DNA from: Nitrososphaerales archaeon
GTDB lineage: Archaea; Thermoproteota; Nitrososphaeria; Nitrososphaerales; UBA57
Reading direction: 5' to 3'
DNA: 36,061 nucleotides
Assembly: GCA_022449325.1 (NCBI GenBank)
Contig: JAKUSK010000004.1
Location: 1 to 36,061 of the forward strand
The notes beneath the pieces were generated by a model, which saw nothing but the letters and a program-made list of their open reading frames with translations, was not told the origin of the DNA and did no database searches. Numbering within the stretch: the stretch's first letter is position 1; each line of letters starts with the position of its first letter. This document shows positions 4,822 to 28,301 of this stretch, piece by piece. The translations under genes and the position numbers were made by a program.

Positions 4822-5052
4822 TTATGTTAAATCAAATTCCAGTCTTTTATCATGGACGCTGTCATGATACTGTATGATTTGATCAATAACGTCAGAATTA
4901 GACAGTAACATTCGTCTACAGCAATAACGAGTAATTTTAAGATCGTCAAGAATTTTTGCTGGGCTTTCTCCATCAGAGGTTCGAGACTCTAAAATTTCAA
5001 GTTTGTCAGCAATAACGCTTCCACAACTAAAACAACGAACTGGAATAATCAA
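4822..5052 (-). CDS. rpoN: DNA-directed RNA polymerase subunit N (Rpo10)
   Basis: MIIPVRCFSCGSVI zinc motif and RYCCRRMLLSN signature. Confidence 0.9.
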   Translation of the reverse strand: MIIPVRCFSCGSVIADKLEILESRTSDGESPAKILDDLKITRYCCRRMLLSNSDVIDQIIQYHDSVHDKRLEFDLT

Positions 5053-5070
5053 AAAATGAACACCAACAAC

Positions 5071-5475
5071 CTATCTATATGATTTCTGTTTTCTTCGTCT
5101 TGCACCAGGACCGCCAAATTTCTTCGATTCACTACGACGAGAATCACCAGAAAGAAGATGTTGATCGTAATCGGAAATTTTAGTTTTAATTTCTTTAGTC
5201 TTAATATGTGAAATGATTGCACGAGACATTGCAATTGCACAGGCTTCTGCTTGTCCCATATATCCTCCACCAGAAACTCGTATGTTTATATCAACTTTAT
5301 TTCGGTGATCGCCAATTAATTCAAGTGGAGTTAACATACGTTCACGTGCCATTAATGGAGTAACAATTTCAACAGGTGTTTTATTTATGAATACTTTACC
5401 AGTACCAGCAGTAATTACAGCAGTAGCTTTAGCTGTTTTTCTGGAAGCTGGAATTAATTTGGATTTCTTTTTCAT
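5071..5475 (-). CDS. rps9: 30S ribosomal protein uS9
   Basis: C-terminal ...GGPGARRRKQKSYR and GGGYMGQAEA motif. Start chosen at the ATG at 5475 (MKKKSKLIPAS), which forms an ATGA overlap with the uL13 stop. Confidence 0.9.
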   Translation of the reverse strand: MKKKSKLIPASRKTAKATAVITAGTGKVFINKTPVEIVTPLMARERMLTPLELIGDHRNKVDINIRVSGGGYMGQAEACAIAMSRAIISHIKTKEIKTKISDYDQHLLSGDSRRSESKKFGGPGARRRKQKSYR

Positions 5476-5924
5476 TCTACTTTTCTCCATCCCATAGATG
5501 AACATAATTCACCAATCGTAGTATAATAAGATAGTGACCTTCTGGCCAATGCTGTATCAATAGTTTTATGTTCGGATTTTTGATATTTTTCAGGAACTGA
5601 GATATATACTCGAAGAAGTTTTTTGGCAGCATTGCCTTTTGGTTTTTTATAAGGAAGCATACCTCTAACCATTTTTTCCATATAGGTATCAGGACGTCTA
5701 GGATGAAAAGGGCCGTGTTTTGGATGTACACGACTAGTTATTTCCAATCTCAATTCATTTTCTTTGAGAATATTAGCACGACTACCTGACATAAGAATTT
5801 TTTCAGCGTTAACTAGGATAACACGATTGCCATTTAGGAGCATTTTTGCGATAACTGAGCACAAACGTCCAGCTAGATGTTTATCGCCATTAATTACAAC
5901 AGTAGATTCGGAATCAGCCAACAA
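5472..5924 (-). CDS. rpl13: 50S ribosomal protein uL13
   Basis: VVINGDKHLAGRLCSVIAKMLLNG...MLPYKKPKG, typical of uL13. Conserved position between L18e and uS9. Confidence 0.9.
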   Translation of the reverse strand: MLADSESTVVINGDKHLAGRLCSVIAKMLLNGNRVILVNAEKILMSGSRANILKENELRLEITSRVHPKHGPFHPRRPDTYMEKMVRGMLPYKKPKGNAAKKLLRVYISVPEKYQKSEHKTIDTALARRSLSYYTTIGELCSSMGWRKVE

Positions 5925-6246
5925 AGATTTTTACACCTTTTCCATCAGGATTAGTTTCAACAAGTTTTTCAATTAACATAACTGTTCCACCGGCATTTTT
6001 AATTTTTACTTTTGCAGTTTCAGAAAAAGAAACAGCGCCAATAGTAATCGAATGTTCGATTACACCTGCGCCCAGAACTTTACCAGGAACTGCTATTACA
6101 TCACCGGTTTTTGTAACTCTAGATAAGTTACCAACATTAATTTCATGATCGTGTTCGAGTTTTTGTACAATATTAGTCCAGACTTTTGCATGAGTTTTAC
6201 GAGCAACGCGTTTTATTGATTCAATTCGATAATCATTAAAGGTCAT
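5914..6246 (-). CDS. rpl18e: 50S ribosomal protein L18e (eL18)
   Basis: INVGNLSRVTKTGDVIAVPGKVLGAG pattern. 110 aa. Lies between rpoD and rpl13. Confidence 0.85.
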   Translation of the reverse strand: MTFNDYRIESIKRVARKTHAKVWTNIVQKLEHDHEINVGNLSRVTKTGDVIAVPGKVLGAGVIEHSITIGAVSFSETAKVKIKNAGGTVMLIEKLVETNPDGKGVKIFVG

Positions 6247-6881
6247 TTTACATTCTCCTGGATTGATTGATTCATATCCTTCAGTTTTGTATTTAATATA
6301 CTTGTAGCTTGCAAGAGAATTTCATTGGCAGGTAAACTTCCTGTTGATTCGAGTGTAAGATGAAATTCAGAATCATTATCAGTATCAGTAAGTGTGGAGA
6401 TTGTAACAGGTTGCCATTTAGCATGATGACGTCCTTTACCGAGTTTAGCATAAGCCTCTAATTTAATTTTTTGACTTGGTGCAAGCTTAATGATTGGAAT
6501 GTTATCAACGTAAGGTTTTACACGAGTGTCTTCAGATACTAAATCTCCAGAATAAATTGTCTTAACTTCATCAGTAGCAACAGCATCAAGAACTAAAAGA
6601 ACACGACATTTAGTACAGCCTAAAGATGTTTTACAATCACAGTCTTGTGGAAGTATGTATCCTTCTAAATCAGTTGTTAAAGGAATGAGTCCAAGACGAT
6701 GAGCAAGGATTTCGTCATATAAAACAGAAGAATTTTCATGAATTACAATTTCGTCGATAGCCATACATGGGACTTCGCTAATAGCAAAGCGTCTAAGAGC
6801 ATTAGCATATACTCTATCTATACCCTTGAGTAGGAGCTTCACGTGTGAGTCAGACGACTCTAAGATTTTAATGGTTGCCAA
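6243..6881 (-). CDS. rpoD: DNA-directed RNA polymerase subunit D (Rpo3)
   Basis: ANALRRFAISEVPCMAIDEIVIHENSSVLYDEILAHRLGLIPL is the RpoA/Rpb3/D dimerisation-domain signature. Compact CxCx6CxxC cysteine cluster. Apparent TTG start. Confidence 0.9.
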   Translation of the reverse strand: MATIKILESSDSHVKLLLKGIDRVYANALRRFAISEVPCMAIDEIVIHENSSVLYDEILAHRLGLIPLTTDLEGYILPQDCDCKTSLGCTKCRVLLVLDAVATDEVKTIYSGDLVSEDTRVKPYVDNIPIIKLAPSQKIKLEAYAKLGKGRHHAKWQPVTISTLTDTDNDSEFHLTLESTGSLPANEILLQATSILNTKLKDMNQSIQENVK

Positions 6882-6984
6882 TTTATGTCACCGTAATACC
6901 TTAGTAAACGCAGAATATTGTAATTAAAACCTTATCATTTTTCGATAAAGATTAATTAGAGGCATTATCTACATAATTATAAAA

Positions 6985-7449
6985 TTGTCGACCGAATTCA
7001 AGTACATAGTAAGAATATTAGGCAGAGACGTCAGTGGTACGAAGAAAGTCATACAGGCTCTCTCCAATATCAAAGGAATTGGCAACAATTTAGCCCATTA
7101 TATCGTGAAATCATTAGAAATAGACAGAGAGTTGAGAATGGGTATGCTTTCAGATGAACAAATTAATGCTATTGAAGAAAATATCAAAAATATAGATAAA
7201 AAATATCCTGAATTTAATTTAAATCGTCAAAAAGATATGCAAACTGGTGAGAATCAACATGTTATTGAAACTGATTTAATTGTATCTAAAAAACAAGATA
7301 TTGACTTGGAAAGAATTTTACAGAGTTGGAGAGGAACAAGACACTCATTAAACTTGAAAGTAAGAGGGCAAAGAACTAGATGTACAGGAAGAGCAGGAAA
7401 AGTAGTAGGAGTACGTAAATCAACTCTAAAACCAGGAAAGGCGAGTTAG
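6985..7449 (+). CDS. rps13: 30S ribosomal protein uS13
   Basis: FKYIVRILGRDVSGTKKV..L..IKGIG...WRGTRHSLNLKVRGQRTR. TTG start as given in the track. Confidence 0.9.
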   Translation: MSTEFKYIVRILGRDVSGTKKVIQALSNIKGIGNNLAHYIVKSLEIDRELRMGMLSDEQINAIEENIKNIDKKYPEFNLNRQKDMQTGENQHVIETDLIVSKKQDIDLERILQSWRGTRHSLNLKVRGQRTRCTGRAGKVVGVRKSTLKPGKAS

Positions 7450-7453
7450 ATAA

Positions 7454-8101
7454 ATGGGAGATCCAAAATATTCAAGAAAAAAGTCGGCGCGACCTCGAAA
7501 CCCTTGGCAACGAAATTTATTAAAAGAAGAATTAGAATTAGTTGGTAGTTTTGGTTTAAGAAATAAAAAAGAACTTCATGTTGCGTCAACAGAGTTATCT
7601 AGAATTAGAAAACAAGCTAGGCAACTTCTGGCTGCAACAACAGAAATTAGAACAGCAAGAGAACCAATTTTATTAACATCATTATCAAGGAAAGGAATTG
7701 TCACTGATGATGCAACGTTAGATAATGTATTAGCACTTAATGTTTCTAGTTTTTTGGAAAGAAGATTACAAACAGTAGTATTAAGAAAAGGATTAGCAAG
7801 AACACCTCATCAAGCAAGACAATTAATTACACATGGACATATAGCAATAGGAAACAATAGAGTAAACATACCAAGTTATACGGTAACACGGGATGAAGAA
7901 CCATTAGTAAAGATGACCGATGGAAGTACATTTGTGCTGCAGGAGATAGCAGTTCCAGAGCCAAAAAGTGATACGTATGGAAATCCAGATGAAAAAGAAG
8001 AATTAGAATCAAAGGAAAAACCTGTTGAAGAAAAGACTGAAGCTAAAGAGGAAATAGAAGAAAAGACTGAAGCTAAAGAGGATGTAAAAGAAAATGAGTA
8101 G
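7454..8101 (+). CDS. rps4: 30S ribosomal protein uS4 with about 40-aa acidic Glu/Lys-rich C-terminal extension
   Basis: [10 protein letters not shown]...LERRLQTVV...[22 protein letters not shown] (S4 domain). The tail is ...[36 protein letters not shown]. Confidence 0.9.
8027..8082 (+). repeat. Tandem 30-nt duplication inside the uS4 tail (26-nt perfect copies at 8027-8052 and 8057-8082)
   Basis: gaagaaaagactgaagctaaagagga occurs twice with a 30-nt period, encoding [10 protein letters not shown] / [10 protein letters not shown]. Confidence 0.9.
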
Positions 8102-14577: not shown

Positions 14578-15078
14578 TTAAATGAATAGTGTTAAAGCGT
14601 CGGGTTCACTAGCCCAAGATAAAAATGCTGAAGCGCCAACAATATCGTCGACTTCGGGAATAAGATTTTCTTCTTTTACATCCATGAATCCCATAGTAGG
14701 AGAACAAGCATGGAGTTTAACGCCGCTGTCTTTAGCCATTTTAATCATGTCGTAAACATTCGGCCAGAATTTTTCAATCTTGCTCTTCATCATAGTAGAA
14801 GCCATTTTAGTCATTCCAGGTATTACACCGACTATATTTGGCATAGGCATACCAGGATTTCCAACAGGAGCAATTTTTACTGAATTAACACCGTCCTTAG
14901 TTAGTGCTTTCAGACCCCAAAAAGTAAAATACATATCAACTTTCATTCCCATAGCAGGTGCTGTAGTGGCGAGAACAAGTGCAGGATAGAGCATGTCTAT
15001 AGTGCCTTTAGATACGACCAATATGAGTCGTTTCTTAAGTTGTTGATTTTCTGGTTGGATATCGGTCAAATTCATCAC
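14578..15078 (-). CDS. DsrE/DsrF-like (DsrE2/3-type) sulfur-relay family protein
   Basis: LILVVSKGTIDMLYPALVLATTAPAMGMKVDMYFTFWGL and KLHACSPTM (conserved Cys), typical of the DsrE_2 / COG2210 family. ATGA-type 4-nt overlap with the upstream TusA gene. Confidence 0.7.
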   Translation of the reverse strand: MMNLTDIQPENQQLKKRLILVVSKGTIDMLYPALVLATTAPAMGMKVDMYFTFWGLKALTKDGVNSVKIAPVGNPGMPMPNIVGVIPGMTKMASTMMKSKIEKFWPNVYDMIKMAKDSGVKLHACSPTMGFMDVKEENLIPEVDDIVGASAFLSWASEPDALTLFI

Positions 15079-15341
15079 TTTTTCTGTATGTGAAATACAA
15101 AGGTTTTGGGAGAAGTCTCTTCTACAGTACTTTCAAGCAATATGTTTCCTGTGGTATGAGCCCATCCTTCAAAATCAATAGGGGCTCCAGGATCAGTTGC
15201 AATTACTTTAAGAATCTGTCCTGAAGATAATTTAGAGATTTCCTTAGCAGTATTGATAATAGGAAGTGGACAAAGCAAGCCTTTCTGATCTAAGGTTTGG
15301 GAGATGTTTAGATTTTCAGTCATCACTTTATCCAACTCCAA
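15075..15341 (-). CDS. TusA/SirA-like sulfur carrier protein
   Basis: GLLCPLPIINTAKEI carries the CPxP active-site motif. 88 aa. Confidence 0.75.
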   Translation of the reverse strand: MELDKVMTENLNISQTLDQKGLLCPLPIINTAKEISKLSSGQILKVIATDPGAPIDFEGWAHTTGNILLESTVEETSPKTFVFHIQKK

Positions 15342-15345
15342 TTAA

Positions 15346-16026
15346 CTACGCTTTAGAAGGATCGGCGACCAGACGAATATAAGGCTTGACTGTCCTCCAA
15401 CCATCTGGAAACAAAGATTCTGCCTCTTCGTTTTTAACAGCTGGGACAATTATAACATCGTCGCCTTTCTTCCAATTTGCAGGAGTAGCTAATTTATGGT
15501 TCACGGTCAATTGAAGGGAATCAATAATTCTAAGTAGTTCATGGAAGTTACGACCTGTAGCCATAGGATAAGTAAGTTGTAGTTTGATCTTTTTGTCAGG
15601 ACCGATGATGAAAACTGATCTAACAGTTTGATTATCAGCAGCTGTACGTCCAACACAACTACCTTCAGTAGAAGCAGGTAACATGTCATATAGCTTTGCA
15701 ATACGAAGTTCGGTATCTGCGATAAGCGGATAATTAGGACGAAATCCTGTAACTTCAGCAATGTCGTCTAGCCATGCTACGTGATCAGAAACTGCATCAA
15801 CACTAAGTCCGATAACTTTAGTGTTTCTTGCAACAAATTCTGATTCTAACTGAGCAAGTGCGCCAAGTTCTGTAGTACATACTGGCGTGAAATCTTTTGG
15901 ATGAGAGAATAATACAACCCATCCGTCACCAATCCAATCATGAAATGAGATTTCACCTTGAGTGGTTTCTACTTTAAAATCAGGTGCGACGTCATTTATT
16001 CTAAGAGACATCAGCAGATCCTCCAT
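15346..16026 (-). CDS. Peroxiredoxin (1-Cys/Prx6-like)
   Basis: FSHPKDFTPVCTTELG peroxidatic Cys motif. The start may be the internal ATG at 16011 (MSLRINDVAPDF). Confidence 0.9.
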   Translation of the reverse strand: MEDLLMSLRINDVAPDFKVETTQGEISFHDWIGDGWVVLFSHPKDFTPVCTTELGALAQLESEFVARNTKVIGLSVDAVSDHVAWLDDIAEVTGFRPNYPLIADTELRIAKLYDMLPASTEGSCVGRTAADNQTVRSVFIIGPDKKIKLQLTYPMATGRNFHELLRIIDSLQLTVNHKLATPANWKKGDDVIIVPAVKNEEAESLFPDGWRTVKPYIRLVADPSKA

Positions 16027-16076: not shown

Positions 16077-16193
16077 ATAATGGCGTTGTATATATAAAGG
16101 TTATGAAAAGACCGGAAGAAATTAAATAATTCTAGTGATAATTAGAAAAGAAATAATCTCATAGATTTAAATGAAGGATAAAGATGATGTGAT

Positions 16194-16538
16194 ATGAATA
16201 CTAAAAATACAAACGCAAATGGAAAGATAGAACTACCAGTAGAATTCCAGGTTGATGTAAGTTTAACAGAATCAAATATTTCTGGAAAAATTTTTAATGG
16301 CGATCTAGAAATTCCAATCTATATAAAATATGGAGATAAAGAAATTTTAATTCCTGAAGAATTTAAAGATGTTGGAAAAAATGTGAAGATAAATTTTACA
16401 ACAGAAAATGAGAACACGGTAATTACAACTGGAAAAGCAAAAAGTAATGAGATCCAATTAGTTCAAATATACGATACAGAATTATGGAATAAGATGGCCA
16501 ATGATAATCCAGTAACAATGTATATCGAAACAATTTAG
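16194..16538 (+). CDS. Hypothetical protein (114 aa)
   Basis: ORF 28 nt upstream of, and co-directional with, the NAD-binding/TM fusion gene. No recognisable motif. Confidence 0.45.
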   Translation: MNTKNTNANGKIELPVEFQVDVSLTESNISGKIFNGDLEIPIYIKYGDKEILIPEEFKDVGKNVKINFTTENENTVITTGKAKSNEIQLVQIYDTELWNKMANDNPVTMYIETI

Positions 16539-16566: not shown

Positions 16567-17910
16567 ATGAAAATACTAGTAACTGGAGCAAGTGGATTTA
16601 TCGGTAAGAAACTTGTTCAACATTTATTGGACAAAAACATATCCGTTCGAATAATGTCAAGAAGATTAGAAAGTTTGGATGGGTTTGAACATAAAAATCT
16701 AGAAAAAGTAAAAGCTAATGCACAGAAATATGAAGAAGTACGAGATGCATTAAAAGGAATAGATATTGCATATTACCTTATTCATTCAATGGAAGGTGAA
16801 TCAAAGGATTGGAAGAAATTTGCAGAAATTGATAAAAAAGTTGCAAAGAATTTTGCAGATGCTTCAACTGAATGTGGAGTAAAGAGGATAATATATGTAG
16901 GAGGATTAGTAAGTATTCCAGATTCGGAAATGTCGAAGCATATGTCAAGTAGAAAAGAAGTAGGTGAAATTCTAAAGTCATCTGAGGCTAAAACAACGAT
17001 ATTTCGTGCGTCTGTAGTACTCGGTAAAGGAGGAGGAGGATTTGAAATGATGAGATATTTGGTAGAGAGATTACCCGTAATGGTATGTCCAAAATGGGTT
17101 TTAACGAAATTACAACCTATTTACATTGATGATGTAGTAGAATATCTCTATGAAAGTTTGAATGTCAAAGAAACTGAGAATCGAACGTTCGATATTGGCG
17201 GGCCTGATATATTAGAATATAGAGAGATGATGAAAGCATATGGAAAAATGAATAATAAATCCATAATCATGATAATCATACCATTTCTAAGTCTAAGATT
17301 TACTTCATATTGGGTGGATCTAGTCACTCCAATTAAAGCTTCATTAGCTAGACCATTAGTAGAGGGATTAAAAAATGAATCAATAATGACTGAGGAGTCC
17401 ATAATGGATTTAATTCCAATTAAATTAAAAGGAGTGGAAGAATCATTAAAGTTATCAATTTATGAAGATGATAAACACGAGTTTACCAAAAAAGAAAATT
17501 ATCTATCTTATTTAGTGATGGCACTGAGTATCATAGGAATTTTGCATTTACTTGTTGATCAAAGATTAATGATGATGTTACCAATAACAGGAACAGTATC
17601 AGTGATTTGGTTAGCAATAATTGGAGCAGGATATTATTTCATAAAACAGAGAGCAAGATTAGGATCTTTATTAGTAGGAATTGCTGGTTGGTCTGCTGCA
17701 CTGTTTTGGTTAGTAGATAGTACGTATTTGATTTCCTATTTGCCTCAAATAGGGCCATATCCAGTTAGCAAAGGAATATCAATATTAGGAACTTATCCAA
17801 GTGTTAATACATCAATATTAAACATAATAGGACTTTGTGTAATTGCAGTGTTATTAGTTGTAGCACACTTTACATTCTACGATAAAGATCTTTACACTAA
17901 ACAATTATAG
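16567..17910 (+). CDS. NAD(P)-binding Rossmann (SDR/NmrA/epimerase-like) protein fused to a C-terminal domain of about 4 transmembrane helices
   Basis: MKILVTGASGFIGKKLVQHL dinucleotide-binding motif. The last 130 aa or so are strongly hydrophobic (YLVMALSIIGILHLL..., VIWLAIIGAGYYF..., LLVGIAGWSAALFWLV..., IIGLCVIAVLLVVAHF). Confidence 0.7.
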   Translation: MKILVTGASGFIGKKLVQHLLDKNISVRIMSRRLESLDGFEHKNLEKVKANAQKYEEVRDALKGIDIAYYLIHSMEGESKDWKKFAEIDKKVAKNFADASTECGVKRIIYVGGLVSIPDSEMSKHMSSRKEVGEILKSSEAKTTIFRASVVLGKGGGGFEMMRYLVERLPVMVCPKWVLTKLQPIYIDDVVEYLYESLNVKETENRTFDIGGPDILEYREMMKAYGKMNNKSIIMIIIPFLSLRFTSYWVDLVTPIKASLARPLVEGLKNESIMTEESIMDLIPIKLKGVEESLKLSIYEDDKHEFTKKENYLSYLVMALSIIGILHLLVDQRLMMMLPITGTVSVIWLAIIGAGYYFIKQRARLGSLLVGIAGWSAALFWLVDSTYLISYLPQIGPYPVSKGISILGTYPSVNTSILNIIGLCVIAVLLVVAHFTFYDKDLYTKQL

Positions 17911-18360
17911 GACAATAAGGAAATATCCTAAAGCTGCTCCATAAATTGCGTGATTTACGAAGCTTCCAATTACAGGAATATTACCCAATGGATGCTCAAG
18001 TGGCTTAACTTTAGTAATAGGTTCATGAATAATCAATACCACAAGAGCAAAAAGAAAGCCTAAAATTGTTCCTGAAATCAAATATGATACTTGAAAGTCA
18101 ATAACACTAACTATAATTGCAAAAGCAATACCGCCTAATCCACCATGAAGAAGATGAAAAAGAAAACTTGGAATTAATAGTTCTTCAGGGTTTTTTTTGA
18201 TGAATTTGGAAGTAATAACTTGGTTTTCGTGCCATTCAAGAACAGATGTCATTCCCCATTTTTTATACATTGGAACTTGAAGAATAGACATTGCAGCTGT
18301 TGCAATAAAACCTGCAATTAATCCATTAATAATAAAAACAATATCCATTTCAAACACCAA
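17905..18360 (-). CDS. Uncharacterised 4-TM membrane protein, paralog B
   Basis: Hydrophobic. Shares YKKWG, E-x-HE, and (G/N)HAIYG motifs with the gene immediately upstream. Overlaps it by 11 nt (or starts at the ATG at 18348). Confidence 0.55.
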   Translation of the reverse strand: MVFEMDIVFIINGLIAGFIATAAMSILQVPMYKKWGMTSVLEWHENQVITSKFIKKNPEELLIPSFLFHLLHGGLGGIAFAIIVSVIDFQVSYLISGTILGFLFALVVLIIHEPITKVKPLEHPLGNIPVIGSFVNHAIYGAALGYFLIVL

Positions 18361-18841
18361 TGTACAAAATTAATGCTATATAGAAATCAACAACTGATAC
18401 ATAAGATTGAGACAAAATGAAACCATAAATCGCATGGCCAAATACACTAACTAAAGCAGGTTTATAGCCAAATGGATTATCACGTAAAGATTCACCAGTA
18501 ATTAATTTGTGGACAGGTAATAAGGTAACAATCCAAACAACAATAGCATAAATTATTCCTAGTAATATTGTTGGTAAAGTATTTGTGAGATTAATGTAAA
18601 AAACAAATGGAATTGACAATAATGATCCATTAATCATATGAGTAAGAAGTCCGAATGAAGAGATTTTATTTTTGAATTCTCGATTTGTTAGTTTACAAAA
18701 CATCATTTCACTTTCATGAAGTTCATAGACTCCTTTGATTCCCCATTTTTTATAAAATGGATATTCAGAAATAGACATAACTACAGTAGGAAGAATTCCT
18801 GCTATGAATCCAACAAACAAATAATGTATGTAATTCAACAC
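18350..18841 (-). CDS. Uncharacterised 4-TM membrane protein, paralog A
   Basis: MSISEYPFYKKWGIKGVYELHESE... and ...VFGHAIYGFIL parallel MSILQVPMYKKWGMTSVLEWHENQ... and ...FVNHAIYGAAL in the downstream gene. Confidence 0.55.
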   Translation of the reverse strand: MLNYIHYLFVGFIAGILPTVVMSISEYPFYKKWGIKGVYELHESEMMFCKLTNREFKNKISSFGLLTHMINGSLLSIPFVFYINLTNTLPTILLGIIYAIVVWIVTLLPVHKLITGESLRDNPFGYKPALVSVFGHAIYGFILSQSYVSVVDFYIALILYIGV

Positions 18842-18920
18842 TCAATGAATATTTTGTCATCGTTTATAATTCATACAGAAAAATAATTCATAGTGCCAAT
18901 AATTAGTTCTAGTGCTAAAT

Positions 18921-18931
18921 ACTATATATAG
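18921..18931 (+). promoter_or_regulatory. TATA-like box (actatatatag) about 25-32 nt upstream of the ATG at 18955; would give a leaderless or near-leaderless mRNA
   Basis: Sequence and spacing only. AT-rich context. Confidence 0.3.
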
Positions 18932-18954
18932 GATGAGCGTAATTTAGAGTTATA

Positions 18955-19812
18955 ATGGTATACATAAGAAATAAACGGGTAAAGGGAATGAATTATTCAT
19001 ACCTAGTAAGAAGTGTATGGGATAAAGAGAAGAAAGCTTCGAAACAAGAAACAATAAAATACCTAGGTAGAACAGAAAAAATAACATTAGAAGATATTCC
19101 GAAAGACTATGCAGAGGATAAAAACATACTCAAGTTTTTTGCAAGAGACAATAATGGAAGTAGAAAAAATTATAATGAATATGTAACAAAGGTACGTAAA
19201 GATTTATTCAAGAAATTAGCAGGTCCGGGACCAATAAATTTAGCAAAAGTATACGACGAGTATAAAGATGATTTTACGATACTAGAATTTTATGACAAGA
19301 TAATTAAACATATCTTATATGATGTGGGCGATTTATGGAGAAGAAATGAATTGATGATTGGAACCGAGCATGTAGTAAGCAACAGATTATTAGGAATCAT
19401 CAGTGAGATGAATAAGAAAGATATAAAGAAGAAGAAAAGATCAAAGTTACTTATTTGTAATCCTTCAGGAGAACGACACAATATTGTATGTAATATGCTC
19501 GAATCTATTTTAACTGACAGAGGTTATAATGTATACAACATTTCTCCATCAACTCCAAGTAAAGATGTAATTAAATACGTAACTAATATTGAACCAGACA
19601 TGGTAATGGTTTCAATAACTTTACCCGCAAACCTGCAGAGTGGAATTAACCTTGTAAAGAACATATCAAAAGATTACAATAAGCCAATTGTTGTAGGGGG
19701 ACAGGCTATAACAGAATCAAGTTCAAAGAAATTCCATCCAGCAATAGCAATGCCGAATCAAAATACATTAGATGAAAATCTTAAAGAAATTAGAAGTCTA
19801 GTTCCAGCATAA
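18955..19812 (+). CDS. Cobalamin (B12)-binding domain protein with CarH-like W-x9-EH helical cap and a basic non-MerR N-terminal domain; candidate B12/light-responsive regulator
   Basis: DLW128RRNELMIGTE138H139. GE173RH175NIV178, then exactly 41 residues to S220-I-T222, then 25 residues to G248-G249. 285 aa. Confidence 0.65.
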   Translation: MVYIRNKRVKGMNYSYLVRSVWDKEKKASKQETIKYLGRTEKITLEDIPKDYAEDKNILKFFARDNNGSRKNYNEYVTKVRKDLFKKLAGPGPINLAKVYDEYKDDFTILEFYDKIIKHILYDVGDLWRRNELMIGTEHVVSNRLLGIISEMNKKDIKKKKRSKLLICNPSGERHNIVCNMLESILTDRGYNVYNISPSTPSKDVIKYVTNIEPDMVMVSITLPANLQSGINLVKNISKDYNKPIVVGGQAITESSSKKFHPAIAMPNQNTLDENLKEIRSLVPA

Positions 19813-22824: not shown

Positions 22825-22888
22825 AAAATCAACTCAATTAAGACAAATATATTATAACTAGAAAATAAGCATTATTGGATAAAATAAA

Positions 22889-23005
22889 GTGCCGGCACCA
22901 TTGCTTCCCGAGACCGTTGGGACCTCAGTAACACACTGGCGTCGACGGTCTTAACTTCTGGGTTCGGAATGGGACCAGGTGGAACCCCGTCGCTATGGCC
23001 GGCAA
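22889..23005 (-). rRNA. rrf: 5S ribosomal RNA, not linked to 16S/23S
   Basis: The reverse complement reads UUGCCGGCCAUAGCGACGGGGUUCCACCUGGUCCCAUUCCGAACCCAGAAGUUAAGACCGUCGACGCC...GGGAAGCAAUGGUGCCGGCAC. It contains the conserved CCGAAC...GAAGUUAAG core and a terminal helix GCCGGC/GCCGGC. GC-rich against an AT-rich background. Confidence 0.9.
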
Positions 23006-23039
23006 CAATAGATAATAAAAATTACACATAGATTAACTT

Positions 23040-27983: not shown

Positions 27984-28045
27984 AATAATTAAAAAAACAC
28001 AGGGTTCTTATTTATTTCTTTAAAAATAGATAAATCAGCAAAACA

Positions 28046-28232
28046 AAGCATAATTGTGGTCATAAAGACATTGTGACGGCCGAATCTGAAGTTGTGTGAA
28101 TAATACGTTGATGATTTTTTGGCCACCCAGCGATGTGACAGATCACAGATAGCCCCGAGTTAAGAGGAGTGGTAAGTATGGGCATTAAGCCAAAACAATG
28201 ACCTATTTCAGTCAGAGGCGGGGTATAATTAA
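28046..28232. ncRNA. Candidate structured non-coding RNA (GC-rich island in a 318-nt intergenic region); class and strand unknown
   Basis: 28121-28180 is about 53% GC (32/60, hand count), versus clearly AT-rich neighbouring spacers. Hairpin TGTGA-caga-TCACA at 28134-28147. Possible long-range pairs CCCCG (28153-57)/CGGGG (28219-23) and GTGGTCA (28057-63)/TGGCCAC (28119-25). No ORF. Confidence 0.3.
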
Positions 28233-28301
28233 CATAGTGTTAATAAATAGTGTCAACTTTTAGAAATATAGTCCAATATTATAAAGAATGAAAGGGGAGA
28301 T

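Follow-up and report, generated by a model that had tools for sequence, protein, structure and literature searches.

A candidate CarH-like cobalamin-binding regulator with a beta-sheet N-terminal domain and a direct-repeat operator in ammonia-oxidizing archaea

Light-sensing repressors of the CarH/LitR type (e.g., CarH of Thermus thermophilus [PDB 5C8A/5C8D/5C8E] and its counterparts in Myxococcus and Bacillus) carry a MerR winged-helix domain, a linker, a helical bundle, and a Rossmann domain, and a Wx9EH motif caps the adenosyl group of their adenosylcobalamin (AdoCbl) cofactor (PMC8156234, PMC11796333). In the CarH tetramer, the cobalamin domains pair head to tail as dimers, and CarH hence recognizes tandem direct repeats, not palindromes (PMC8156234). 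Two sequence signatures have been published, namely, the CarH cobalamin motif (D/ExHx2G/P-x41-SxT/V-x22-27-GG; PMC9304148) and a four-element signature of light-responsive cobalamin domains (GxxW, EH, GxxH, and GxxxP; PMC11796333). For CtMerR of Chloracidobacterium thermophilum (PDB 8JBS/8JBT), AdoCbl binding and a response to green light were established by experiment, and the signature residues touch the adenosyl group (PMC11796333). The photocobilins (8J2W/X/Y; Wx9EH type) and the related AerR (7TE2) illustrate the cobalamin domain as a portable light sensor with varied outputs (i.e., bilin binding, a diguanylate cyclase, or a protein partner such as CrtJ), in these cases with no fused DNA-binding domain. 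Here we analyze a 285-amino-acid (aa) protein encoded in a 36,061-nucleotide (nt) stretch of the forward strand of contig JAKUSK010000004.1 of a Nitrososphaerales archaeon (GCA_022449325.1); this whole stretch is called the window below. An earlier note, made from the sequence alone, had proposed that the protein joins a CarH-like cobalamin sensor to an N-terminal domain that is not of the MerR type. On the basis of sequence comparisons and structural models, we consider it likely that the protein is an archaeal analog of CarH with a new DNA-binding module and a small light or photo-oxidative-stress regulon.

Ammonia-oxidizing archaea drive nitrification in the sea and in soil, are light sensitive and inhibited by light, and are major producers of cobalamin. 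We know of no photoreceptor or light-responsive regulator in these organisms. In the searchable literature (subscription journals lie outside it), we found no paper that links Thaumarchaeota, ammonia-oxidizing archaea, or archaea at large with a CarH-like regulator. One supplementary file of the SignatureFinder paper (PMC11796333) contained no archaeal terms, and the protein described here would fail the strict signature of that paper anyway because of a serine at position 197 (see below). Since Wx9EH-type domains are already known on many outputs (PMC10979010, PMC11796333), the sensor is of a known kind; what appears to be new is that the host is an archaeon with its own type of promoter, along with the DNA-binding-like beta-sheet module and its kinship to the N terminus of an IS1634-family transposase, the operator, and the candidate regulon.

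The product is laid out as an N-terminal beta-sheet domain, a helical bundle, and a Rossmann-type B12-binding domain (Table 1), and every coordinate and residue number of the earlier note proved correct when checked against the open reading frame (ORF), its translation, and a regular-expression search (codon starts: W128, 19336; E138, 19366; H139, 19369; H175, 19477). The hidden Markov model (HMM) searches proposed in that note gave a significant match to B12-binding (PF02310; residues 166 to 254; E = 1.2e-10; over its cut-off) and a sub-threshold match to B12-binding_2 (PF02607; residues 105 to 144), which is matched clearly in relatives; neither MerR nor any other helix-turn-helix (HTH) model of Pfam matched the 285-aa protein, even at E <= 10. 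The absence of a MerR domain at the N terminus, also claimed earlier, is borne out by a predicted all-beta fold. Length and motif spacing are almost identical to those of CarH, with 41 residues from V178 to S220 and 25 from T222 to G248. Every element and spacing of the published CarH motif is present except that Val178 replaces Gly/Pro, a departure that the earlier note had recognized; this position varies (V/A/G/S) within the family. Thr222, which the note had counted as a second deviation, is canonical, since the published motif has SxT/V (PMC9304148). H175 (codon 19477-19479), in the segment G172-E173-R174-H175, is presumed to be the lower axial ligand, and G125 completes a GxxW element with W128. 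Three of the four SignatureFinder elements are therefore found (G125xxW128, E138H139, and G172xxH175; all invariant in the family). The fourth reads S197-P-S-T-P201, with Ser for Gly, so that the full signature is lacking, a deviation that the earlier note had overlooked.

A search of 5.8 billion protein sequences retrieved full-length relatives with identities from 99% to about 37%, and the named ones belong to Nitrososphaerales, Nitrosopumilaceae, Nitrososphaeraceae, or Nitrosotenuis. Automatic annotation calls them, among other names, "B12-binding domain-containing protein," "methanogenic corrinoid protein MtbC1," or "MerR family ... light-induced transcriptional regulator." When 23 diverse members (37 to 86% identity) were aligned, G125, W128, E138, H139, G172, E173, H175, S220, T222, G248, and G249 proved invariant. 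The motifs are thus not due to chance and, as judged from this alignment, are under selection.

By sequence and by predicted fold, the C-terminal two thirds of the protein come closer to light-sensing cobalamin domains than to methyltransferase corrinoid proteins. The best NCBIfam model was CarH (4e-14; residues 114 to 260 on model positions 117 to 259), followed by MtgC, MetH, MtbC, and MtaC, and every one of these models, CarH included, stayed far under its cut-off; the MtgC, MtbC, and MtaC matches (1e-8 to 5e-6) include MtaC/MtbC-type scores of 26 to 35 bits against cut-offs of 215 to 450. The best PDB relative by sequence was the cobalamin domain of CtMerR (8JBS; 3e-12), with the photocobilins, MetH, and Thermus CarH next. 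In the CtMerR alignment, the W, EH, and lower-ligand His match residue for residue: the W128-x9-E138-H139 segment aligns to WRRGELNIWEEH, GDLWRRNELMIGTEH pairs with GERWRRGELNIWEEH, and SGERH pairs with EGDLH. A WRR(G/N)EL...EH segment is common to the two proteins, both of which have Arg next to the Trp. On this alignment, W128, E138, and H139 would lie over the upper face of the corrin. CtMerR is bacterial and has a MerR-type N terminus, and identity is about 19% over the fold alignment.

An AlphaFold2 (AF2) model computed from the family alignment (predicted local distance difference test [pLDDT], 85; predicted template modeling score, 0.70) contains three N-terminal strands, a helical bundle (helices 56-64, 70-89, 96-102, 109-129, and 135-155), and a Rossmann domain; W128 ends one helix and E138-H139 begins the next. 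A Foldseek comparison with the PDB placed CtMerR, photocobilin, CarH (dark and light states), and AerR at ranks 1 to 22 (E = 2.5e-11 to 5e-10, with CtMerR at 2.5e-11; target template modeling [TM] score, 0.75 to 0.79 for isolated domains), while the methyltransferase corrinoid protein MttC came lower and superposed poorly (TM score, 0.38/0.51; root mean square deviation, 9 Å). These comparisons agree with the CarH-like signature proposed earlier, and neither family scores nor fold favored placement with MtaC/MtmC-like proteins, the outcome that the earlier note had named as refuting its proposal.

The N-terminal domain sits where CarH has its DNA-binding domain and is presumed, from its sequence, to be a DNA-binding module. 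Residues 1 to 40 contain 11 Lys/Arg and 3 Asp/Glu, and strands at 2-9, 12-23, and 28-39 are predicted confidently in the model of the whole protein as well as in an AF2 model of the domain by itself (pLDDT, 86.5). In the 23-member alignment, 18 of the first 38 residues are invariant (MVYIRxKxVKGxxYxYLVxSxW...Q...KYLG), as are I48-P49. No Pfam model matches the domain, and its profile gave only chance matches among PDB sequences. A relationship to integrase arm-type or AP2-like domains, which we considered, found no support in Foldseek or profile searches, the fold search being weak for this domain.

The earlier note had also remarked on a resemblance to transposase N termini, which held up. 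When residues 1 to 52 were compared by tblastn with 72,556 plasmids, seven weak matches were obtained, all starting at query residue 1 or 2; three lie under genes annotated as "IS1634 family transposase" and the rest in unannotated DNA. The match falls at the extreme N terminus in both of the IS1634 genes examined, and the shared pattern (YxYLVES...G(K)xxRQ+xIKxLG) begins at residue 1 or 2 in the transposase as in the archaeal protein. The domain profile scores 36.5 bits on residues 6 to 40 of a Novosphingobium IS1634 transposase (MYVVERVARGHRYLYLVESVREGKTVRQRTIKALGRKD), in which Pfam detects the DDE domain only, and weakly on an Aliarcobacter IS1634 protein. In these transposases (IS4-related, DDE type), the segment precedes the DDE catalytic domain rather than a cobalamin sensor and would thus occupy the usual site of an end-binding module.

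The domain profile also found stand-alone proteins of 42 to 60 residues that consist of little besides the domain (MAFIRTKxIKGxxYYYLVENxRxGKKVxQKVLxYLG). Some of them (in the set P0276 to P0327) are assigned to Woesearchaeota; P0276 is made of two tandem copies, and P0318 and P0324 have histone-H1-like Lys/Ala-rich tails. From their sequences, these mini-proteins may be an unrecognized family of small archaeal nucleic-acid-binding proteins. A PF20586 label on the tandem protein was absent in a fresh Pfam scan and was not used.

When 1.84 billion cluster representatives were searched exhaustively with HMMER, a second clade with the same architecture appeared, which is Arg-rich, has a high G+C content, and shares 22 to 28% identity with the first; one member is labeled Thermoplasmata (cluster look-ups and a third search). 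This clade retains the Gly of GxxxP. The search also returned many Wx9EH cobalamin domains behind other N-terminal modules (XRE-type HTH, winged helix, or globin-like) or behind none. With further members in "Candidatus Nitrosocaldus," the regulator family is found in all three orders of ammonia-oxidizing archaea, and Nitrosotenuis chungbukensis MY2 is at least one strain in culture that has it. With one genome taken per GTDB species, 247 loci were found; the best 80 of these, all from Nitrososphaeria, were used for the neighborhood and operator analyses. The loci closest to the window (84 to 93% identity) are from metagenome-assembled genomes of uncultured Nitrosopumilales or "Thaumarchaeota." Several Nitrososphaeraceae genomes carry two paralogs of the regulator on different contigs, often in unlike gene contexts (L009/L047, L010/L044, L015/L057, L019/L076, L025/L031, and L040/L074).

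A candidate operator lies upstream of the regulator gene. Its repeat unit (TTAGCACTAG) occurs in two direct copies spaced 19 bp apart and adjoining a TATA box. In the window, both cores (TAGTGCCAA, 18891-18899, and TAGTGCTAA, 18910-18918, on the plus strand) fall in the 113-bp divergent intergenic region 18842-18954. TAGTGCYAA has no other exact match in the 36-kb window, and the only site pair detected with a position weight matrix (PWM) is the operator itself (score, 30.2; shuffled sequence gives 0 to 1). The regulator TATA box begins 3 nt past the proximal repeat and about 28 nt ahead of the ATG, a distance that implies an mRNA with little or no leader; by the usual geometry of archaeal promoters, the proximal repeat would coincide with the B recognition element (BRE). 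Five relatives keep both repeats and the TATA box unchanged and differ in the spacer between the repeats. On the other side, the TTTATAAT block lies about 25 nt from the start codon of the divergent operon and 19 nt from the distal repeat. A further block, (T/G)ATTTAG at 18941-18947 between the regulator TATA box and the ATG, is invariant in the same five relatives and could be an initiator region or a degenerate third half-site, as in the high-G+C clade.

Table 1. Features of the regulator locus (positions in the window)
Feature	Position	Strand	Basis or remark
Regulator gene, 285 aa	18955..19812	+	ATG-to-stop ORF and translation; family kept across Nitrososphaeria
Residues 1-55, basic three-stranded antiparallel beta-sheet followed by conserved EDIPxEY tail	18955..19119	+	Presumed DNA-binding
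Residues 56-155, helical bundle, B12-binding_2-like cap	19120..19419	+	AF2 helices; weak PF02607
W128-x9-E138-H139, CarH-type 5'-deoxyadenosyl cap motif	19336..19371	+	Regular expression; alignment to 8JBS
Residues 163-262, Rossmann-type B12-binding domain (G172-E173-R174-H175, S220-x-T222, G248-G249)	19441..19740	+	PF02310; regular expression; invariant columns
Operator, two direct repeats 19 bp apart	18889..18920	-	Reads ATTTAGCACTAGAACTAATTATTGGCACTATG on the minus strand
Regulator TATA box, TATATATA	18923..18930	+	Sequence and conservation; position from standard archaeal promoter geometry
Invariant TTTATAAT block, likely TATA box of divergent DUF6789 operon	18863..18870	-	Inference
Two tandem DUF6789-like membrane-protein genes	18350-18841, 17905-18360	-	Divergent from the operator region
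NmrA-like NAD(P)-binding protein, 447 aa, hydrophobic C terminus	16567..17910	+	Pfam
hyp114	16194..16538	+	No Pfam match
Single operator half-site, AATTATCACTAGA (score, 13.9)	16131..16143	-	About 50 nt upstream of hyp114; doubtful

The operator stands upstream of the regulator gene in most species and also about 30 nt upstream of many neighboring genes. Its core (TTAGCAC, given as the reverse complement) was the most enriched 7-mer, occurring in 43 of the 73 more distant upstream regions (expected, 1.2), and the shared layout is TTAGCAC(T/C)AG, nine bases, TTA(C/G)CACTA, and then a TATA-like box. With a half-site matrix built from 18 repeat pairs, pairs were sought across the 80 species loci, which amount to 766 kb with 75% of the DNA in ORFs; 104 sites were obtained, none of them inside an ORF, and Markov-simulated loci gave 0 to 1. 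The spacing counts peak sharply at 19 bp (103, with 15 at 18 bp, 23 at 20 bp, and 0 to 9 at the other spacings from 10 to 30 bp). Twenty-seven of the 104 sites precede the regulator gene; behind each of the others, the start codon of a different gene follows at about 30 nt (28 to 33 nt), so that these sites had no part in the training of the matrix. A degenerate pair pattern was also searched in public metagenomes, and the matches listed are mostly on low-G+C contigs with an ORF starting 28 to 33 nt downstream.

A related pair of repeats occurs in the high-G+C clade (65 to 73% G+C) despite quite different neighboring genes and base composition. There, the regulator gene starts 4 to 14 nt after a gene for an MMPL transporter, and the common promoter contains (C/A)TAGTGCC, 13 bases, TAGTGCC, a TATA box, and an inverted (T)AGGCAC/TGGGCAC half-site. 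The repeats, 20 bp apart, are clear in three of the five loci and degenerate in two, and 7 of the 10 exact copies of TAGTGCC in these loci (62 kb) are in the MMPL-regulator promoter. No gene other than the regulator goes along with the motif in all the lineages examined, and this co-occurrence is the strongest available argument that the N-terminal domain reads the motif; an NmrA-type reductase neighbor is likewise common to many loci of ammonia-oxidizing archaea and to four of the five high-G+C loci. The conserved operator thereby gives strong, if indirect, support for a DNA-binding regulator. On these sequence data, we regard a B12-binding transcription factor that uses a TAGTGC-type operator as highly probable.

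The protein resembles CarH/LitR in the order of its modules (an N-terminal DNA-binding module, here presumed, linker, helical bundle, and Rossmann domain), in the Wx9EH and ExH...SxT...GG motifs, in a putative, analogous operator of direct repeats beside or overlapping the core promoter, and in neighboring genes that are plausibly linked to light stress. The differences are that an all-beta domain of roughly 40 residues replaces the MerR winged helix, that the host is an archaeon and the target a TATA/BRE promoter, and that two repeats 19 bp apart stand in place of three or four contiguous 11-bp repeats. As judged from sequence, the protein would function like CarH/LitR but stands outside that family, given that the MerR domain is absent and the cut-off of the CarH equivalog model is missed by far.

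We infer the following mechanism. The helical bundle and the Rossmann domain would bind AdoCbl, with His175 as the lower ligand and Trp128, Glu138, and His139 capping the light-labile 5'-deoxyadenosyl group. In the dark, cofactor-loaded domains would associate head to tail, as in CarH, and such a dimer would show its two beta-sheet domains in the same orientation, which matches direct repeats at a fixed 19- to 20-bp register; the third, inverted half-site past the TATA box of the high-G+C promoters would suit a higher oligomer. Since the proximal repeat lies 3 nt from the TATA box, at the expected BRE, occupancy should hinder the TATA-binding protein (TBP) and transcription factor B (TFB). The bound protein would then repress its own gene together with genes that mostly lie nearby and encode small membrane proteins (DUF6789 among them), reductases (NmrA-like and others), TspO, a class III cyclase, and DICT-like proteins. 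Light would cleave the Co-C bond and loosen the oligomer, whereupon the DNA would be released and the genes expressed. Light is fairly likely to be the physiological signal, and repression in the dark is held with slightly less assurance. The earlier interpretation of the protein as a B12- or light-responsive regulator is supported by the motifs, the homology, the predicted fold, and the co-occurrence with the operator.

The candidate regulon begins at the locus itself. The two DUF6789-like genes at 17905..18841 are probable targets; their Pfam matches are weak and fall short of the 27.1-bit cut-off (24.3 and 23.5 bits), and DUF6789 genes adjoin the regulator, carrying the operator, in 17 species. 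Other operator-bearing genes encode further small membrane proteins, a secreted repeat protein of roughly 300 aa, a DICT-like protein, a class III nucleotide cyclase, an NDH-2-like flavoprotein, an amine-oxidase/CrtI-like flavoprotein, a DUF1731-type epimerase, NAD(P)-binding reductases, and small zinc-ribbon and membrane peptides. On two low-G+C metagenome contigs (L130 and L177), a TspO/MBR gene (Pfam, 7e-51) starts 29 nt past a perfect operator pair. Recurrent neighbors of the regulator also encode DUF1722 (YbgA-like), a pyrimidine-dimer DNA glycosylase, and a MEDS-domain protein; the glycosylase and DUF1722 genes showed no operator on their upstream side. TspO, YbgA, UV-damage glycosylases, CrtI-like oxidases, and short-chain reductases recur in bacterial light and photo-oxidative-stress clusters, and the theme of the regulon fits a light response. 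MEDS and DICT are listed as domain partners of light-responsive cobalamin domains. In Nitrosopelagicus (L056, L066, L072, and L078 to L080; around positions 5000-7500), the regulator is flanked by genes for MEDS-domain, HTH_45 winged-helix, and DICT-like proteins, and the DICT-like gene has its own operator 14 to 29 nt upstream.

The most widely conserved neighbor pair of the regulator is hyp114 and the NmrA-like gene. An NmrA-like gene (447 to 490 aa) lies within about 4 kb of the regulator in roughly 40 of the 80 loci (38 by clustering, and by tblastn), usually preceded by a hyp114 homolog (of about 113 aa in many Nitrososphaeraceae loci); in Nitrososphaeraceae, hyp114, the NmrA-like gene, a gene for a 190-aa membrane protein, and the regulator share one strand. 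The hydrophobic extension of the NmrA-like protein (residues ~310 to 447) suggests a membrane-anchored reductase. In the window lineage, the full operator is confined to the regulator/DUF6789 intergenic region. The single half-site ahead of hyp114 is degenerate in three of four close relatives (L002, L004, and L005) and was rejected as evidence for regulation of the pair. In the high-G+C clade, an NmrA/Epimerase gene (330 to 336 aa) is adjacent to the regulator or one gene off in four of five loci: in L207 to L209, the MMPL-regulator operon is followed by the NmrA/Epimerase gene (336 aa) and then by a fasciclin-domain gene; in L203, the NmrA/Epimerase gene is upstream of MMPL; and L205 has neither the NmrA/Epimerase nor the fasciclin gene. 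Single or inverted TAGTGCC-type sites also occur in the NmrA/fasciclin intergenic region of high-G+C loci.

Several observations weigh against a CarH-like, light-responsive repressor. The match to the CarH equivalog model (NF052513) reaches 52.5 bits against a cut-off of 400 and covers the cobalamin domain only, so that the protein is not a CarH ortholog. Val178 and Ser197 depart from the respective signatures. Foldseek searches with the N-terminal domain gave best E values of 0.66 (PDB) and 0.056 (BFVD), none of them significant, at a domain size for which such searches have low power, and, as far as we know, the function of the homologous IS1634 N terminus has not been established. Genes for HTH_45 proteins and TFB are found in some neighborhoods, and the operator could be bound by another factor. 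Neither a photolyase nor a carotenoid gene was found among the operator-bearing genes (±6 kb of the loci and the metagenome matches listed). The position of the site beside the BRE/TATA region is also compatible with activation. Finally, Arg129 follows the Trp where Thermus CarH has the His of its bis-His light state, and no such state is expected here; CtMerR likewise has Arg after the Trp and did not monomerize in anaerobically illuminated crystals (PMC11796333), so the step after photolysis may differ from that in CarH.

Activation can be framed within the same mechanism if the protein were a light-inactivated (or light-activated) activator that recruits TFB or TBP from just upstream of the TATA box. 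The repeats of most loci do stand directly upstream of the TATA box and not over the start site, and some archaeal activators bind at just that position. The 3-nt distance of the proximal repeat from the TATA box, at the expected BRE, speaks against recruitment, as does the way in which the high-G+C sites bracket the TATA box with the downstream inverted half-site, a layout typical of repressors; moreover, all characterized CarH-type proteins are repressors (PMC8156234). We therefore consider an activator unlikely.

Somewhat less probable still is a sensor of cobalamin status, in which AdoCbl would act as a corepressor or coactivator, the regulon would follow the B12 supply much as under the riboswitches of bacteria, and light would be irrelevant. 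The domain would bind B12 either way, CarH too needs AdoCbl for DNA binding (PMC8156234), and family members from soil and hot-spring lineages (Nitrososphaeraceae and Nitrosocaldus) live where light is perhaps limited. However, the operator-bearing genes found include none for cobalamin biosynthesis, cobalamin transport, or B12-dependent enzymes; AdoCbl in such a pocket is intrinsically photolabile; and the Wx9EH motif, invariant here, sets photoreceptor domains apart from enzyme and carrier domains (PMC9304148, PMC11796333, PMC8156234).

The presence of AerR among the structural matches raises the case of an AerR/PpaA-like coregulator, whose cobalamin domain would sense light and whose N terminus would make protein contacts while another factor sits on the operator. 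DNA binding by the beta-sheet domain is, after all, a presumption, and the HTH_45 and TFB genes near the regulator in some lineages would supply such a factor. The high-G+C loci examined contain no HTH_45 or TFB gene, though, and the regulator is the one operator-associated gene common to every lineage (with the widely shared NmrA-type neighbor); in addition, the strongly basic character of the domain and its homology to a transposase N terminus tell against such a role, and AerR is not known to have a Wx9EH cap. We judge this arrangement improbable.

A methyl-carrier corrinoid protein of the MtaC/MtbC type, suggested by Joint Genome Institute names ("methanogenic corrinoid protein MtbC1") on several members and by the weak MtgC/MtbC/MtaC matches far under their cut-offs, is very improbable and was rejected on family scores, fold, and gene context, since CarH-type relatives are better by sequence and fold, no methyltransferase partner gene occurs in about 90 neighborhoods, a basic N-terminal domain and an autoregulatory-looking operator would be out of place, and methyltransferase corrinoid proteins (MtaC, MtbC, MttC, MtgC, and the MetH domain), which share the helical cap, the Rossmann fold, and the His-on ExH motif, have no Wx9EH cap or DNA-binding domain, carry methyl rather than adenosyl, and work with methyltransferase partners.

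The favored reading, a CarH-like repressor of archaea, may extend further. The protein could be the founding member of an archaea-wide class of B12 photoreceptor transcription factors that read 19-bp-spaced direct repeats at TATA/BRE promoters through a hitherto unrecognized, transposase-related beta-sheet DNA-binding fold and switch on a dedicated photoprotection regulon; the class would range from ammonia-oxidizing archaea to the high-G+C archaeal clade, with TspO, reductases, small membrane proteins, and cyclase/DICT proteins under its control. We put this broader proposal forward tentatively, as not quite an even prospect. If it is true, "non-phototrophic" nitrifiers have a direct sense of light, their photoinhibition gains a molecular handle, CarH-type control extends to the archaeal transcription machinery, and B12 photobiology gains a new output module. 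How ammonia-oxidizing archaea perceive light is a long-standing question for which a protein, a DNA site, and target genes are now defined candidates, and through this family light sensing by nitrifiers becomes directly testable. The beta-sheet domain, shared by an IS1634-family transposase and archaeal mini-proteins, is a small, widespread, presumably nucleic-acid-binding domain for which the databases hold no model, and archaeal genetics could use the compact pair of sensor and operator as a green-light switch.

Other features of the window are of minor interest. A cluster for DsrE-like, TusA-like, and 1-Cys peroxiredoxin proteins (14578-16026, minus strand) lies just upstream of the hyp114/NmrA-like pair; it is syntenic in close relatives only, and no operator was found in it. 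An unusually long (318 bp), G+C-richer intergenic region at 27984-28301 contains two TAGTGTYAA near-matches to the operator half-site (TAGTGTTAA at 28235 and TAGTGTCAA at 28248), which were rejected as an operator (13-bp spacing; no PWM dimer); no Rfam family matched this region at E <= 1, and folding gave a z-score of only -1.74. The sole Rfam family in the window at gathering thresholds is a 5S rRNA gene (RF00001; 79 bits) at 22887-23006 on the minus strand.

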